The position numbers were made by a program, and so were the translations under genes. The notes under the pieces were generated by a model that saw only the letters and a list, made by a program, of their open reading frames with translations, did not search any database and had not been told where the DNA came from. 43,741 nt of DNA, taken from sequence record NC_019724.1; one strand, given 5' to 3'. This DNA comes from Escherichia phage HK578. Below, piece after piece: positions 9,577 to 38,539 of this stretch (the stretch's first letter is position 1; every line of letters begins with the position of its first letter).

Positions 9577-9637
9577 TTTGGCGCAATTCTGCGCGTGCTG
9601 TATCATTAAACCGTATATCTAAACAGGAGCGTTCATT

Positions 9638-10363
9638 ATGGGTTATCAACTTCCTAACGGGTCCAGCGTCCAGATTGGGTCCGTATTGGGTGCAGGCATC
9701 GCTGTTACGGCAGCGACCAACGCCGCGGCGTCAATCTCCGACCTTACGCAAGGTTGCGTAATTACCTGCGCGGAGTCTCACGGTCTGGTTGTTGGCGACG
9801 TTGTTATGTTCACTAAAACCCCGTGGGTCCGTGCGCTGAACCGCGCGTTCATCGTTGGTAAAGTGTCCGGGAACGACGTGACGCTGGCGCGCTTCGATAC
9901 TCAAGACGCCACCAAATACCCGACCGGTGCTTTCGGCGTAGGCACACCAGGCGAAGTGGTGAAAGTGTCGAATTTTATCGACTTCCCGTTTATCACCAAC
10001 GTTGCCGTGTCTGGTGGCGACCAGCAGACGACTACCTTCCAGCCGTTGCAGGTGAATACCGCGATCAGTCTGAACACCACGAAAAACCCGTTGGTACAGA
10101 CCTACACTTTCACCCATGACGAAGAAGACCCGATCCGCCCAATCCTGGAAGACCTGGACGACACACAGAAAACCACTGTGATTAAGTTCACTAACCCAGC
10201 GGCAGCAAGCGGCAAAGGTGAAATCCGCATTTACCCGGCGAAGGTGTCTTTCCGGAAGATTCCATCGGCTGAAGTAAACAACGTGGAGACGGTGGAGTCC
10301 ACGCTGACCATGCAATCCGATATGGTTATTTACCGTAAGGATCTGGTTGAGGCGCTGTCGTAA
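9638..10363 (+). CDS. major tail protein
   Basis: 241 aa, SD AGGAG, followed by strong terminator and then the chaperone/tape-measure genes (conserved siphovirus order). Confidence 0.65.
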   Translation: MGYQLPNGSSVQIGSVLGAGIAVTAATNAAASISDLTQGCVITCAESHGLVVGDVVMFTKTPWVRALNRAFIVGKVSGNDVTLARFDTQDATKYPTGAFGVGTPGEVVKVSNFIDFPFITNVAVSGGDQQTTTFQPLQVNTAISLNTTKNPLVQTYTFTHDEEDPIRPILEDLDDTQKTTVIKFTNPAAASGKGEIRIYPAKVSFRKIPSAEVNNVETVESTLTMQSDMVIYRKDLVEALS

Positions 10364-10393
10364 TTTGGTCGCTTAAATAGCGGGTGTTAATAT

Positions 10394-10416
10394 GGGGCCA
10401 GTACGGCCCCTTTTTT
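10394..10416 (+). terminator. intrinsic terminator after major tail gene
   Basis: GGGGCC-agtac-GGCCCC followed by TTTTTT. Confidence 0.7.
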
Positions 10417-10432
10417 ATTGGAGAATACTACA

Positions 10433-10795
10433 ATGGCTAAAGCACAACTCTTTACACTTGACCCTAAGCCGACTTTTAAGCTGCCGATTGAAATCCCGCG
10501 CCCCGGCGAAAACGAACCAGGCAAAATGACGTTTACCGTGCGCCACCGCCCTATAGACGAATTTTCGCAGACCATGCAGGATACAGAGCGAAAGTTGTCG
10601 GAATATGACGACAATGATCCGGACGGCTTTAATGTTATGGTCGAGGCCATCATGCACGTAGCGGAAGGGTGGAATCTGCCGGACGAATTTAACGCGGAGA
10701 ACGTCCGCCGCCTGGTGGTCAACTATCCGCGCGCGTTCGGCGTGTTCCACACTTCGTACTATCTCGAACTGATGGGATTGCGTGAAAAAAACTAA
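10433..10795 (+). CDS. tail assembly chaperone (G-like)
   Basis: ATG 10433 (MAKAQLFTLDPK...) with SD GGAGAA; ends with slippery A AAA AAC directly before stop; located before the tape measure gene. Confidence 0.7.
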   Translation: MAKAQLFTLDPKPTFKLPIEIPRPGENEPGKMTFTVRHRPIDEFSQTMQDTERKLSEYDDNDPDGFNVMVEAIMHVAEGWNLPDEFNAENVRRLVVNYPRAFGVFHTSYYLELMGLREKN

Positions 10796-11109
10796 TTGAG
10801 GCGGCGCGACGCTTTTATGGCCCGCCGCCACCCTCCGAAGATTTAGCCGCGAGTTTATGGGGCGCGACACCCGAAGACGTGTGTCCGCCCGTTGCGCTGT
10901 GGCCCGACAACGCGAAGGTAGTCGCAGTCTTCACAGATTGCTCCACGCAATGGCGTACCGGATTTGGCGGGGCATACGGCATAGACTACGGCGTACTGGA
11001 ATGGTTATTTAAGATGCACGGCATTGAAAACGCGCAACGTGCGTTTAAAGATATCAAGCTAATGGAACGCGTTGCGCTTGATGAAATGGCGCGGCAGAAC
11101 CCCGCATAA
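10433..11109 (+). CDS. tail assembly chaperone frameshift fusion (G-T-like)
   Basis: predicted ~225-aa product made by -1 slip at 10786-10792 joining 10433..10792 to the -1 frame ending at 11109; matches the conserved G/G-T arrangement upstream of tape measure genes. Confidence 0.55.
10786..10792 (+). other. -1 programmed ribosomal frameshift site (A AAA AAC)
   Basis: heptamer X XXY YYZ at the last two codons of the G-like ORF; -1 frame is open from here to 11109 (checked codon by codon 10792-10881). Confidence 0.6.
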
Positions 11110-11115
11110 CGAAGC

Positions 11116-11381
11116 AGGACAGGCGGGACGTCCCGTTTTATCCCGTTCTGTCCCGCACCTCTAAAAACTGCATATTTACCCACTCCTATTGCATAAATTA
11201 AAAGCGGGACAGGGGTGCTGTCCCGATCTGTCCCACCCCCAAAATGTGAATAGTTATGCAGTTTTCGCGCATAAAACAAACGGGACAAAAAGCGGGACAG
11301 AATTGGGCGGGACAAAGCGGGACGTCCCGCCGCCCCCATCAGTGCTGCCGCGTGTTTCAGCCGATCGGGACAGGCGGGACA
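11116..11381. repeat. GGGACA / TGTCCC iteron array (copy A region)
   Basis: about 13 copies of GGGACA or its complement in ~270 bp, including palindromes GGGACGTCCC (11125-11134, 11318-11327) and pairs spaced 9-12 nt. Confidence 0.7.
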
Positions 11382-11435
11382 AAGCCCAGTCTTTCAGACT
11401 AGACGGGGGTCATTGGCCCCCCTCGTCTGAGACTG
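11246..11435 (+). repeat. ~190-bp dispersed repeat, copy A
   Basis: aligns by eye at roughly 85 percent identity to 38348..38539: shared blocks tgaatagttatgcagtttt, cgggacaaaaagcgggacaga, gggcgggacaaagcgggac, gggacaggcgggacaaa and the terminal hairpin. Confidence 0.75.
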
Positions 11436-11503
11436 AATAAGGTTTGTTTTAAATTCGCTGATACAATGTCAACCGGCAACTGCATAAAAAGGGGGACTGC
11501 ATA

Positions 11504-14146
11504 ATGGCAGATCAGGCAGCGGGCATCACGCTCAAGGCGGACGTCGCGCAAATTAAAACGGCTAATACTGTGCTGGACACATTTGCGCAGAAATCCGAGA
11601 ACACAGAACAGAAAGTAAAAAAATTAAACGACACACTCGGCAAGTCTAAAAAGGTTACTGGCGACGCCGCGGGCGGAATGGAAAAGTTAGCGACTGAATC
11701 GCAGCGTGCCGCCGATGGTATGTCAAAACAGGAGCGACTCGCCAGCCGATTAGGCATGTCGACCAAAAACCTGGGATTCGCATCGCGGAACGCCGCATTC
11801 CAGTTACAGGATATCGCGGTAACGCTCGAGATGGGTATGCCGGTGCATCGAGTAATGCTTCAGCAGCTACCACAGCTTACGGGGGCGTTTGGTGGGTTGG
11901 GGAATACGCTGCGTTATGTCGTCGGCACCCTCGGCCCGATAGGGATCGGAATCGCTGCATTAACGGCAACGCTAGGCGTGGGCGTGGCGATTACGTCCCG
12001 CGCGGAAAACCAAGTGGCGGCGCTGAATAAGACGCTGGCGCTGTCCGGTAATATTTCGGGCCTCACCGCTAACCAGATCCTGGTGCTATCCGAGAACGCC
12101 GAGCGGATGGGCGGATCATTCCGCAAGACGCGTGACACAATTCAGTCACTGGCGGCGGCTGGGGTGAAAGCCGGAGCGGATTTCGGCGGGTTAGCAAAGG
12201 TGGTTAATGACTTTGCAAAGACGTCGGGCCAGCCTATTGAGGACGTGGTCGCGTCGGTGGCGAAGCTGTCCACTGACCCAGTAGGTGGTTTGCGCGCACT
12301 GGCGGATAAGTATCACGTCGTAACCGAAGCGCAGATCCAGCAGGTGCAGTCATTGGTGGATGTGGGCCGCGAGACAGATGCGGTTGCGCTGGCGAACAAA
12401 ACCGCCGCGGCGTCGTTTACCACTATGACAAACGATATCAAGGCGAACATGGGTACGCTTGAGCGGTCGATGAACGTCGTCACATCGGCAGCTAAATCCA
12501 TGTGGGACGCCATCCTGGATGTGGGCCGCGCGCAGTCCTCCAATGAGTCAGAGATGAAAGCGCGTGAATCCTTGCAGCGCATGACCACGGCTTACTATGC
12601 CGAGATGAAAGCGGTAAACGCTGCCGGTGGGGTGATGACTGAAGCGCAGAAAGCACGTATTAACATGCTTTACAGCGAAATGGTCGCCCAGGAGAAAGTA
12701 GTGGCGTCGCTCACCCTGCGCAACCGCGCCGAGCGGGACAACGCCCGCGCCTCGGACGAATCGGCGAAGGCGAACGAGGAGGCCAACCGCGCTGCCCGCG
12801 ACCGCGCCGCATTTGAGAAGGAATTCGCCACCAACGCGAAGAGGCGCTCCGACGAGATCGCTCGCCTCAATTTGCTGAATAAGCGCGGCGTTATTAGCGA
12901 GAAAGAGCTTGCCGAGGCGGTGAAGCAGGTAAACGAGCGCTACAAAGACCCGGCCCCGAAGAAGGCCGCGGCTGTTCGCGTGGATGCCGGTATGAAAATG
13001 CTGGAAGTCGCACGGAGCGAACTGGCCCAGCTTCGAGAATCCGGCAAGCAGATCGAAGCCAACGCATCGACGCAGACCCGCACACAACGCGCTCAAGCGG
13101 CCCTAAACAAGCTGATCGCCGACAATGAGCAGTTAATTGCTGCGAGCAAAGAAAGAGCGCTAACGGCAGCCGAAAAGCAGCAGATGGTCGAATTCGGACG
13201 CGTGAAGGAAGTGCGCGAGCAGATCGTCGAAGAAGCCAAATTGCTGGATGCGAAAGAGCAGCAGGTTAAGGCGCACGCGCAGATCGATGCCTTCGTTAAG
13301 AACCAGAACGCCGAACTAAAAGCCACCGCCGCGGGGTATGCGCTTTCCACTCGCGAAGCGGCAAACCTGCGCGAAGAATTGCAGCTAATTGATCGCCTGA
13401 AGCGGGTTGGCGCTAACGATACCGATATAGACAAGGCGGTGTCTAAGCTGCGCGAAGTGCAGGAAGCACAGACCGGAGCTAACGCCTCGCTATGGGATGG
13501 CTTCAGCCACGGGCTTAAGGATAGCGTGGATGAAATGGGTAACGGATATACGCAGATGGCGTCTCTCACGAAATTCACATTCAGCGCTATGCAGGACACG
13601 ATGAACGAGTTTTTCGAGACTGGCAAGCTGAACGCAAAGGATATGGTTAAGTCCATCCTGAGCGAATTAATCAAGCTGGCTACCTCGCAGGCGTTCAAGT
13701 CCATCGTTAGCGCTTTCGGTGGTGACGGCGGCAAAAACGGATTGTTCGGCGCTATCTTCTCTGGCCTTACTAAGAATGCGGACGGTGGAGCGTACGCAGG
13801 AGGCAATCTCGCGGCCTATTCGGGGAAAGTGGTAAGCCAGCCTACCTTTTTCAGTTATGGCGTCCAGGCGTTCGCTAAGGGCGCTGGGTTGATGGGTGAG
13901 GCTGGGCCTGAGGCCATCATGCCGCTGAAGCGCGGGCCGGACGGGAAACTGGGCGTTGCTGCGTCTGGCGCAGGTGGTGGTATGGTCGTGACGACTAACG
14001 TTTACACGGGGACCGGTAAAACGGATACCAGTGTCGGCGGGCCGGACCCCCGTACCGCGCAGGCGTTCGGCAAGCAAATCACCGAGGCGGTGAAGGCCGA
14101 GATCGTGAAGGCGACGAAACCGGGTGGTGTACTTTATAAACGATGA
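11504..14146 (+). CDS. tail tape measure protein
   Basis: 880 aa, helical Ala/Gln/Glu/Lys-rich, Gly-rich C-terminal region; SD AGGGGGA; follows G/G-T. Confidence 0.85.
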   Translation: MADQAAGITLKADVAQIKTANTVLDTFAQKSENTEQKVKKLNDTLGKSKKVTGDAAGGMEKLATESQRAADGMSKQERLASRLGMSTKNLGFASRNAAFQLQDIAVTLEMGMPVHRVMLQQLPQLTGAFGGLGNTLRYVVGTLGPIGIGIAALTATLGVGVAITSRAENQVAALNKTLALSGNISGLTANQILVLSENAERMGGSFRKTRDTIQSLAAAGVKAGADFGGLAKVVNDFAKTSGQPIEDVVASVAKLSTDPVGGLRALADKYHVVTEAQIQQVQSLVDVGRETDAVALANKTAAASFTTMTNDIKANMGTLERSMNVVTSAAKSMWDAILDVGRAQSSNESEMKARESLQRMTTAYYAEMKAVNAAGGVMTEAQKARINMLYSEMVAQEKVVASLTLRNRAERDNARASDESAKANEEANRAARDRAAFEKEFATNAKRRSDEIARLNLLNKRGVISEKELAEAVKQVNERYKDPAPKKAAAVRVDAGMKMLEVARSELAQLRESGKQIEANASTQTRTQRAQAALNKLIADNEQLIAASKERALTAAEKQQMVEFGRVKEVREQIVEEAKLLDAKEQQVKAHAQIDAFVKNQNAELKATAAGYALSTREAANLREELQLIDRLKRVGANDTDIDKAVSKLREVQEAQTGANASLWDGFSHGLKDSVDEMGNGYTQMASLTKFTFSAMQDTMNEFFETGKLNAKDMVKSILSELIKLATSQAFKSIVSAFGGDGGKNGLFGAIFSGLTKNADGGAYAGGNLAAYSGKVVSQPTFFSYGVQAFAKGAGLMGEAGPEAIMPLKRGPDGKLGVAASGAGGGMVVTTNVYTGTGKTDTSVGGPDPRTAQAFGKQITEAVKAEIVKATKPGGVLYKR

Positions 14147-36013: not shown

Positions 36014-38275
36014 ATGAAAAATTACTTAATCGAGTTCGGCACCGTCGGCGGTAAGTACGGCAAGCGTGTTAAAAACCATTCTATGACGGAAGCCGAGTTT
36101 ATGGAATACGTCGCGGATACAGTGGAGCTGTCCGGCGTTACCATTACCGGCGACGAGACTAAGAAAGAATACGATGCGGTGAAGGGTAAGGCGGAAGGCA
36201 TTGTCGCCACCACTAAAGGCCGCGGTCGTCGCGCCACGGAAGTGGGTGTGCGTTCGGTTTTGTTCTACGATCTGGACCGCACGGACAACCGAACCCTGGG
36301 TCGTGTTAAGCGGGCATTTCGTAAATCCGGCCTGTCCCACGTCTACTACTCCACTACTGGCGACCGCCATCCGCTGAAGGGCGGCACACGTTGCGCACGT
36401 TTCCTGGTACTAACCAATAAACCGGTCGACGTTACCGATTTGGGGCGTGCTCAGTTCGCACTGTTACACGACCTCGGACTGGAAGACGTACCGTTTGACG
36501 ATTGCACAAAAAACGTCAACAACCTGCAGTTCCTCCCGCATTCCGGATCTACCGTGTCTTGCCACCACGGCAAACGTGCCAATGTGCGGCGTCTGCTCCG
36601 CCTGGCTGACAAGCTGGGGGTGGAGAAAGAGGAAGTACGCCGCGAGCTTACCCAGGGCGACGACGCAGTGGCGGACGGTATTCTGGACTGGTGCTTCCAG
36701 GCAGGATTCGAGGAGTTATCCTCCGGTCGCGGTTATGAAGTGCCTTGCCCGAACGAACATCTGCACAGCGGCGAAGGATCGACGGCCATCATGGTCAAGG
36801 ATGGCGAGATCCGTTTCAAGTGTATGCACACCGGCAACGAGTGTTGCTCGGAGCTAAATAGACACCAGCACCTGGCGCTACGTCTTATCGGGATACCGGA
36901 CCACCTGAACGTCGAGCCGCACAACATGTCCCGTAAGCAAATCGCCGCCATCCTCCCAGGGCTGGACGACGAGGAAGTCGAATCCTTATATGAACATATT
37001 GTTGATGCGGTTGGCGACGGCGAAGAATACGGCGTATGCACCGATGCGGATCTGGATAACGAGCCGGTTGCGCTGTTCAGTAAGCACGACCCGATCATCG
37101 AGGGGTTGATTAACTTTAAATCGACCTGGTATATGGCGGGCGAGTCGAATATCGGTAAGTCGTTCTATGTGCTGGGGCAGATGGGCGCGGTTGCCGCCGG
37201 TATCCCGTTTGGCGGTGCGAAGGTCGTCCAGTCGCATTGCTTCTATTTCGATGCGGAAGGCGGCGAAGCCTCCAACCAGCGTAAGGAGGCATTGCAGATC
37301 AAATACGAGCACGACCTGGACAAGCTGCACATTATCGACCTGCAATCACGCGGCTGGGATATCACCAGCAAGTCTGGCTTGCGCGAAGTTATCAGCTTTA
37401 TCAATCGCACAGCTAACGGGGAGCCGGTTGGCCTGGTGGCATTCGACTCACTCAACCAGACTGTTGCGCTGCGGTCCGCCGATGCTAAACCATTTGACGA
37501 GAACAACGCCAGCGATATGGGTGAAGTGGTCAAAGCGTTAAAAGCCATCGCGGAAAACACAGGCGGCAGTGCGGGCGTCATCCACCACCCGGCGAAAGGT
37601 GCAAACGGCAGCAGAACCCCCCGCGGGTCCGGTGCGCTTCATGGCGCTGTCGATTCTGCGTTCTTCCTGGAACAGCCGGACGACAACCAGCCGGGGCAAC
37701 TTAACCTTTATCACGAAAAATCACGTAACGGCATCAAGCAAGCGCCTCGTGGCTTCGTCCTGCTCAAGTGCAAGGTGAAGGTAGATCTCCGCAAGTCAGA
37801 AGCGTTCGCGTCGCACCAGTCCACCAGCACCGGGCCAGACTTCGGCGACGTTGTTGCCGGTTGGGACGTCAAACCAATTGCGTCCACGCCACGCGACGAG
37901 ACTCTGTACCTCGTGCCGGTCGCCCTGGCGCCGTTCGCCATCGAACAGGCGAAGGCCGCGGGCAAAGCTGCAGTTAAGGAAGAAAACGCCGCCGGTCCGC
38001 GCAACGAAAAAGAGAAAGTGCTTTATGCTGCCCTGGAAAAACTGATGGAAGATAACCCGGACCATACTGGATTTAGTAAATCGGCAATTGTCCGCCAGGC
38101 TGGACTCGCGAAGGGTGGCACTTCGACGAAGGCAATCGACGATATGGTCGAGCGCGGCGTGATTGGTTTCTACACAGATCCGCACACCGGGGCCATCTAT
38201 GGGTCGTCGAATTTAGTCATCAAATCGGATAGCCCCATAACGCTTTCGGCGACCGATGATGACCTGAAAGATTAA
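36014..38275 (+). CDS. primase-helicase (Prim-Pol domain + zinc-binding region + RecA-like ATPase)
   Basis: 753 aa; N-terminal VLFYDLD and TTGDRH (archaeo-eukaryotic primase-like), Cys/His cluster CPNEHLHSG...CMHTGNEC, Walker A GESNIGKS and Walker B LVAFDSL; C-terminal ~100 aa possible DNA-binding domain. Confidence 0.8.
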   Translation: MKNYLIEFGTVGGKYGKRVKNHSMTEAEFMEYVADTVELSGVTITGDETKKEYDAVKGKAEGIVATTKGRGRRATEVGVRSVLFYDLDRTDNRTLGRVKRAFRKSGLSHVYYSTTGDRHPLKGGTRCARFLVLTNKPVDVTDLGRAQFALLHDLGLEDVPFDDCTKNVNNLQFLPHSGSTVSCHHGKRANVRRLLRLADKLGVEKEEVRRELTQGDDAVADGILDWCFQAGFEELSSGRGYEVPCPNEHLHSGEGSTAIMVKDGEIRFKCMHTGNECCSELNRHQHLALRLIGIPDHLNVEPHNMSRKQIAAILPGLDDEEVESLYEHIVDAVGDGEEYGVCTDADLDNEPVALFSKHDPIIEGLINFKSTWYMAGESNIGKSFYVLGQMGAVAAGIPFGGAKVVQSHCFYFDAEGGEASNQRKEALQIKYEHDLDKLHIIDLQSRGWDITSKSGLREVISFINRTANGEPVGLVAFDSLNQTVALRSADAKPFDENNASDMGEVVKALKAIAENTGGSAGVIHHPAKGANGSRTPRGSGALHGAVDSAFFLEQPDDNQPGQLNLYHEKSRNGIKQAPRGFVLLKCKVKVDLRKSEAFASHQSTSTGPDFGDVVAGWDVKPIASTPRDETLYLVPVALAPFAIEQAKAAGKAAVKEENAAGPRNEKEKVLYAALEKLMEDNPDHTGFSKSAIVRQAGLAKGGTSTKAIDDMVERGVIGFYTDPHTGAIYGSSNLVIKSDSPITLSATDDDLKD

Positions 38276-38347: not shown

Positions 38348-38539
38348 GTGAATAGTTATGCAGTTTTATTGCATAAAGCAAGCGGGACAAAAAGCGGGAC
38401 AGACCAGGGGCGGGACAAAGCGGGACAGCACCCCCTGTCCCGCCCGGCTGGCGCGGCTCTCAGAGGAGCGGGACAGGCGGGACAAACCCCAGTCTTTCAG
38501 ACTAGACGGGGGGTCAATGGCCCCCCTCGTCTGAGACTG
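38348..38539 (+). repeat. ~190-bp dispersed repeat, copy B (GGGACA iterons + hairpin)
   Basis: seven GGGACA/TGTCCC copies at 38384-38484 and hairpin 38490-38539; homologous to 11246..11435. Confidence 0.75.

Follow-up and report, generated by a model that had tools for sequence, protein, structure and literature searches.

The tail chaperone locus of HK578

The window analysed here is the whole 43,741-nucleotide stretch of DNA from Escherichia phage HK578 (NC_019724.1), a siphophage belonging to the Dhillonvirus (HK578-like) type. Positions 9600–11600 share 93.9% identity with Escherichia phage PC2, and matches to this region were obtained in 157 phage records. The following features were located.

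9638–10363, plus strand: major tail (tube) protein gene (PF08813 Phage_tail_3, E = 3e-32; phrog_584, E = 8e-74)
10394–10416, plus strand: terminator-like GC hairpin and T-run, GGGGCCAGTACGGCCCC TTTTTT (consensus scan)
10433–10795, plus strand: gene G, encoding the 120-aa tail assembly chaperone, the zero-frame product (translation; PF08748)
10783–10785, plus strand: TGA, the −1 frame stop immediately 5′ of the heptamer, which closes the T frame upstream
10786–10792, plus strand: slippery heptamer A_AAA_AAC, zero-frame codons AAA and AAC (sequence, conservation)
10792–11109, plus strand: T extension in the −1 frame, 105 codons plus TAA (PF08809, phrog_680)
10793–10795, plus strand: TAA, the stop codon of G, abutting the heptamer (sequence)
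10800–10829, plus strand: hairpin with a GGCGGCG/CGCCGCC stem and inner pairs (dG −17.1 kcal/mol)
11504–14146, plus strand: tape measure protein gene (PF06791 TMP_2, E = 2e-44; PF09718; phrog_24, E = 4e-181)

The gene order is major tail protein (PF08813), G (PF08748), −1 frame extension (PF08809) and tape measure protein (PF06791). The G/T pair lies between the tube gene and the tape measure gene, the position by which Xu et al. (2004) recognise G/GT pairs, and the tape measure protein is the presumed client of G and GT. G starts at ATG 10433, with a Shine–Dalgarno sequence GGAGA at 10420–10424. The element at 10394–10416 is probably a partial terminator that reduces expression of the chaperone and the tape measure protein relative to the tube protein; a terminator is annotated at the equivalent position in the record of Klebsiella phage Skenny. 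An antisense open reading frame at 10415–10870 (151 aa) was unsupported and was taken as spurious.

Both parts of the pair match defined protein families. Residues 1–120 of G align with positions 1–124 of the 124-position profile PF08748 (Phage_TAC_4; E = 7.7e-24, 84.7 bits against a gathering cut-off of 21.1), and extension residues 23–99 align with positions 1–80 of the 80-position profile PF08809 (DUF1799; E = 2.8e-21, 76 bits against a gathering cut-off of 26), while phrog_680 covers extension residues 11–103. A single PHROG profile, phrog_17368, spans the pair, its first half matching G and its second half T. PF08748 and PF08809 were the sole families returned by the Pfam scan at E ≤ 0.1, and no lambda gpG/gpT-type families were found in it. 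A PDB sequence search gave no match at E ≤ 1, an NCBIfam search gave none, and a search of 10300–11600 against Rfam returned only SraG on the minus strand, with an E value of 0.29 and far below the gathering threshold. Judged by sequence and position, the pair is best described as a positional and functional analogue of lambda G/T that has no detectable sequence kinship with it.

The pair is inconsistently annotated. In GenBank Dhillonvirus records (L001–L003 and L108–L112) four names are in use for G: ‘hypothetical protein’, ‘tail assembly chaperone’, ‘tape measure chaperone’ and ‘tail length tape measure protein’. The last of these names stems from transfer of a PHROG label, and the label carried by phrog_569 and phrog_680 seems to have been given to chaperones in error. 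For the T frame the records have truncated open reading frames of 117 or 231 nt, or the full 315 nt starting from ATT (Sodalis phage SO-1), and in phage Ioannina it is labelled ‘major tail protein’. None of the 8 Dhillonvirus records inspected annotates a joined G–T coding sequence.

The 394 nt between the T stop and the start of the tape measure gene (11110–11503) contain no convincing open reading frame. This stretch is dense in GGGAC(A/G)/GTCCC motifs in both orientations, and includes the palindrome GCGGGACGTCCCG at 11123–11135 and 11317–11329 as well as 24-nt inverted arms at 11122–11145 and 11308–11331. The window contains 15 copies of GCGGGACA where 2.1 are expected (0 of 100 shuffles), with clusters at 11149–11381 (5 copies) and 38382–38484 (7 copies; region 38380–38490). 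In Sodalis phage SO-1 the equivalent stretch is annotated as ‘repeat_region region A ... sequence similarity with region B’. The repeats of 11110–11503 look like an array of putative DNA-binding-protein sites, for which the interior of a tail operon is an unusual location.

The shift site and its conservation

Positions 10781–10795 read CGT GAA AAA AAC TAA in the G frame, and the −1 frame over the shift site reads GCG TGA AAA AAA CTA ATT GAG. Translation confirmed this ending of the G-like frame, which had been reported in the first-pass annotation together with a −1 frame open from the heptamer to 11109; the latter is indeed open over 10786–11106 and closes with TAA at 11107–11109. Both frames are open only in the 7 nt of A_AAA_AAC. 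Since the −1 frame is closed by TGA at 10783–10785, a productive −1 shift is possible only on the heptamer, which is a canonical X_XXY_YYZ sequence in zero-frame phase within the overlap, as in the G/GT pairs described by Xu et al. (2004). The predicted GT fusion, encoded by 10433–10792 joined to 10792–11109, has 120 + 105 = 225 aa and a mass of 25.6 kDa; the size of about 225 aa proposed earlier is thus reproduced by calculation, for a product whose synthesis is predicted. A +1 or −2 shift was rejected, the +1 frame closing within two codons of the stop (AAT TGA). A sequencing artefact was also rejected, as the same sequence is present in more than 100 independent genomes.

The shift site exceeds chance expectation. 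AAAAAAC is present in 3 copies in the window, counting both strands, against 8.5 expected from shuffles, and the chance of a random 7-mer fitting X_XXY_YYZ is p ~0.004. A heptamer lies flush against the stop in 3 of 143 open frames (at least 100 codons, all six frames), and in 2 of these 3 the −1 frame continues for at least 80 codons. G is one; the other, going by the list of open reading frames, appears to be a plain gene overlap whose downstream member starts at an ATG of its own.

In-phase heptamers also occur within genes. A_AAA_AAA is found at 11617–11623, at about codons 38–40 of the tape measure gene, where the −1 frame ends after 8 codons, and A_AAA_AAC is found at 36508–36514 in a 753-aa open reading frame (36014–38275), where it ends after 31 codons. 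Both are probably incidental. Other A7 runs in the window start at, for example, 11617 and 35408.

To compare the site among relatives, 107 related loci were assembled from IMG/VR and GenBank phages. GAAAAAAAC followed immediately by TAA or TGA was found at 102 of the 107 loci, and is kept even where G identity is only 42–46%. The latter relatives, which form a large prophage-like clade and include Aeromonas phage pAEv1818, carry CG[CTA] GAA AAA AAC followed directly by TGA or TAA. CGTGAAAAAAACTAA was present in all 17 Dhillonvirus-like IMG/VR loci and in all 3 GenBank records first fetched, and these loci have a 7-nt overlap and an extension of 105–106 codons. The five loci without GAAAAAAAC have alternative shift-prone motifs at the equivalent place. 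The T1-like phages tunzivis and Rtp read GTA AAA AAC TAA at the shift site, Ralstonia phage Dina reads CGG GGA AAC TGA (G_GGA_AAC), Pectobacterium phage Taid reads CAA AAG TAA, and Klebsiella phage Skenny reads GCA AAA GTT TAA, a non-heptamer motif one codon before the stop. The −1 extension is 101–107 aa long at all except three loci, whose short extensions (45–70 codons) were taken as cut by the end of the fetched sequence. Site and arrangement are therefore kept in diverged relatives, a further property of G/GT pairs according to Xu et al. (2004).

A stop codon (TAA or TGA) lies directly 3′ of the shift motif at 106 of the 107 loci, the exception being Skenny. The first-pass annotation had pointed out the contact between heptamer and zero-frame stop at this site; the adjacency is real, and it is a family-wide property, not special to HK578. 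In phage Zar3M (NC_073065.1, 690–790), AAAAAAT TAA is found instead of AAAAAAC TAA within a record containing many N bases, probably reflecting a low-quality stretch and not a genuine variant.

The seven-A run at 10785–10791 raises the possibility of transcriptional slippage, in which RNA polymerase adds one A to the run. One inserted A shifts the reading frame just as a −1 ribosomal slip would, with the junction ...REKK-LIEAARR, and there are bacterial examples of slippage on A/T runs (PMC5009743). Relatives nevertheless keep the two-frame layout with shorter runs, of six A in T1-like phages, four in Taid and three in Dina; it is the heptamer in the correct phase that is conserved, and not the run length. 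The conserved stop, and the hairpin of Dhillonviruses described below, also make sense for a ribosomal mechanism. Efficient transcriptional slippage in E. coli usually requires runs of about 9 or longer, and programmed slippage is typified by a long conserved homopolymer of at least 8–9 A or T, compared with A7 here. As the source of the fusion, slippage by RNA polymerase is thus highly unlikely; it could be a minor contributor at most. Since the site persists in relatives whose runs have only six, four or three A, the family mechanism must be another.

Searches with the 225-aa fusion were consistent with a two-frame arrangement. Matches were obtained by tblastn in 1152 phage records, 1023 of which cover at least 80% of the fusion, and among the matches listed the fusion aligns in two pieces, that is, in two frames. 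A homologous-protein search with the fusion gave 3 matches only. Among the best 150 of 1186 library hits, a single protein, P0011 (206 aa; L113:173–793), spans both halves in frame. P0011 contains PF08748 and PF08809 in one frame and does not have the ...ELxGxREKN-LI... junction residues. As it comes from an 811-nt metagenome contig of 2.6x coverage, it could be a natural in-frame G–T fusion or an assembly error, and its Rosetta-stone value is weak. An AlphaFold2 model of the fusion, predicted from the single sequence, had a mean pLDDT of 39 and was unusable. The homologous pair of Skenny has been deposited as a joined coding sequence, ‘tail assembly chaperone frameshift product’, and ‘a conserved translational frameshift’ has been reported for the T1-like phage Stevie (PMC4319613).

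Translation of the extension

Aligned extensions are conserved from residue 1 (KKLIEAARRFYGPPP in the window, GKLIEAARRLYWSPP in Ralstonia phage Dina). Around this point the aligned sequences read KKLIEAARRFY in the window, GKLIEAARRLY in Dina and KKLKRAVYLFY in T1-like phages. Within the Dhillonviruses, comparison of 18 sequences over 10792–10878 gave 6, 0 and 13 variable sites at −1 frame codon positions 1, 2 and 3 respectively, a pattern expected of coding sequence.

These results bear on whether T is made independently as a second gene, starting at GTG 10879 and giving a 76-aa protein of 8.6 kDa, a possibility that the first-pass annotation had set against the frameshift. GTG 10879, codon 30 of the extension, is the first and only canonical start in the −1 frame, and several records annotate an open reading frame of 76 aa or shorter here. 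The codon is replaced by ATC in a divergent Dhillonvirus locus (L015), which has no in-frame start before extension codon 68, already within the conserved domain. Other relatives have their first one anywhere from extension codon 5 to 57, so that no T start codon is conserved among the aligned relatives. No clear Shine–Dalgarno sequence was seen before 10879. The Pfam and PHROG matches begin at extension residues 23 and 11 respectively, both upstream of the GTG, and the 29 codons that precede it are conserved as protein, varying mainly at third positions. The T peptide FYGPPPPSEDLAASLWGATPEDVCPPVALWPDNAK spans the GTG. A −1 overlap in which T has neither a conserved start nor a conserved ribosome binding site is characteristic of G/GT pairs (Xu et al. 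2004). Separate expression of T from GTG 10879 is consequently disfavoured, and we regard it as hardly credible.

Termination at the G stop followed by reinitiation would produce T as a free protein of 104 aa. In UAAUU the stop codon and an AUU at 10795–10797 share one base, and the Sodalis phage SO-1 record annotates gp16 from this position. AUU can initiate translation in E. coli, as in infC. The corresponding codon is however ATA (Ile) in the large second clade, ATC in Ralstonia phage Dina and AAG (Lys) in T1-like phages; conservation thus extends to the slippery motif but to no initiator. Reinitiation would furthermore leave the invariant codon choice GAA AAA AAC unexplained. We consider it extremely improbable.

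From the conservation of the extension we infer that T has no translation product of its own and is made solely as the C-terminus of the 225-aa GT fusion, beginning at the shift site. The G/GT-type mechanism put forward in the first-pass annotation is upheld by the gene order, the protein families, the conservation of the site in distant relatives and the conservation of the extension as protein from its first codon.

Stimulatory elements, mechanism and known systems

The region downstream of the heptamer was folded, as had been suggested earlier, in search of a stimulatory structure. The hairpin at 10800–10829 begins 7 nt 3′ of the heptamer. In stimulated −1 frameshifting of the dnaX, IS911 and IS3 type, a stable structure is expected at a spacing of 5–9 nt, backed by conservation or covariation. 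Its folding z score is −1.9 in a 48-nt window and −1.2 in a 55-nt window, ranking 21 of 127 local windows, and its energy alone is unremarkable. No covarying pairs were found in the hairpin (0 pairs). The one very divergent Dhillonvirus sequence, that of Zar3M (79% at the shift site), was rejected as a source of covariation, as it is full of N bases.

Synonymous variation among the Dhillonviruses gives a different indication. It is lowest over the whole G–T gene at codons 117–132, where 1 of 14 codons is variable compared with 0.68 overall, and R117–N120 show no synonymous changes in 18 Dhillonvirus sequences. Only three sites vary within 10781–10829: 10798, in the spacer, and 10807 and 10809, both unpaired positions of the hairpin. 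Variation returns at 10830, one base beyond the stem, and the suppressed stretch therefore runs from the heptamer through the 3′ end of the hairpin. The 60-mer 10776–10835 is at least 99% identical in 100 of 154 phage records, compared with 15 of 152 for a control 60-mer in T and 0 of 156 for one in G. These observations point to selection acting on the nucleotide sequence of the heptamer and the hairpin, and make the hairpin a plausible candidate for a Dhillonvirus-specific frameshift stimulator. A counterpart was not found in the other clades; in the second clade (68 unique sequences) the heptamer alone is conserved, with no consensus structure (alifold −2.8). Folding thus yielded a downstream structure that is conserved in sequence within the genus but is not kept outside it. 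A potential upstream stimulator resembling a Shine–Dalgarno sequence (GGGA, 10774–10777) was unconvincing, as it arises from a conserved Gly codon with a variable third base (GGA/GGG/GGC).

Taken together, the sequence comparisons indicate that a −1 frameshift on A_AAA_AAC very probably yields the GT chaperone fusion. Most ribosomes would read G (10433–10792), terminate at TAA 10793–10795 and release a 14-kDa chaperone. A small fraction would slip one base back on the heptamer at 10786–10792 and read CTA ATT GAG... to 11106, giving the 25.6-kDa GT product with the predicted junction ...GLREKN-LIEAARR.... The abutting stop probably tunes the rate of slipping, the A site being empty while tRNA-Asn is on AAC, and the GC hairpin is probably a second tuner of the rate in the genus Dhillonvirus. 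If the parts act as they do in lambda, binding of the tape measure protein would fall to the G part and recruitment of the tail tube protein to the T part, and neither G nor GT would be present in the virion.

The stimulatory role of the stop is suggested by its conservation, from which we infer that slow termination assists the slip. A_AAA_AAC has a low efficiency in E. coli that is above background (PMC4066793). The lambda G:GT ratio is about 30:1 (PMC5009743), and given the low proportion of GT to G needed in lambda, a weak heptamer is to be expected here. A more general reading, which we offer tentatively and hold to be rather unlikely, is that throughout the PF08748/PF08809 family (Dhillonvirus, T1-like, phi80/ES15-like, Aeromonas, Ralstonia and Pectobacterium phages) the conserved stimulator would be the zero-frame stop flush with a weak heptamer and not RNA structure, the Dhillonvirus hairpin having been added as a lineage-specific tuner. 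If this were true, the shift would follow translocation, with tRNA-Asn in the P site and a slowly decoded stop in the A site, and the G:GT ratio would be set by release-factor kinetics.

The main value of these results lies in annotation, since the 225-aa GT chaperone is mostly unrecorded in about 150 Dhillonvirus genomes in GenBank. The family also provides a natural series for studying how a stop flush with a weak heptamer sets a low frameshift rate, with the heptamer–stop adjacency at 106 of 107 loci and the hairpin in only one clade. Knowledge of phage tail assembly and of recoding is unchanged by the finding.

The lambda G/GT system (Levin, Hendrix & Casjens 1993; Xu, Hendrix & Duda 2004, 2013, 2014, cited in PMC5009743) shares with HK578 the genomic position (tube gene, G, −1 frame T, tape measure gene), an X_XXY_YYZ heptamer near the 3′ end of G and a T frame without its own start. 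In lambda the longer fusion is made at low frequency, as predicted here, and the presumed roles, G binding the tape measure protein and T recruiting the tube protein, would be common to both. G/GT pairs as defined by Xu et al. (2004) also yield the two proteins at a fixed low ratio, require both of them for tail assembly and have neither in virions. The lambda heptamer is G_GGA_AAG and not A_AAA_AAC, the proteins have no detectable sequence homology, and the repeat-rich gap of 394 nt between T and the tape measure gene is unlike lambda. The HK578 heptamer touches the stop, whereas slippery site and stop are on average 36 nt apart in the set of Xu et al. and 26 nt apart in SEA-PHAGES chaperones (PMC10885494).

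In E. coli dnaX (A_AAA_AAG), too, the heptamer is A-rich and is followed within a few nucleotides by a GC hairpin. There, however, the highly efficient AAG codon in the A site gives a shorter product at about 50%, whereas the HK578 site has a weak AAC codon and would give a longer product; dnaX in addition has an upstream Shine–Dalgarno-like sequence, of which no convincing conserved equivalent was found upstream here. IS1 insA-insB′ uses the same heptamer, A_AAA_AAC, in the same host translation system. The IS1 shift is proven, is of low efficiency and has no established RNA stimulator (PMC4066793). The IS1 proteins and their biology are unrelated to those of HK578, the shift in IS1 serving transposase dosage and not virion assembly.

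The T1-like and Webervirus pairs (T1 gp40/gp39, Rtp rtp35/36, Stevie and Skenny) are true homologues, with 29–40% identity in both halves, and lambda-type G/GT recoding in this chaperone family is already recognised in these phages. They are of a different genus from Dhillonvirus, the hairpin sequence of Dhillonviruses is absent from them, and HK578 G has a 20-aa acidic insertion relative to their G proteins. The T1-like phages nevertheless have A_AAA_AAC abutting TAA, exactly as in HK578, with GTA in place of GAA reducing the run to six A.
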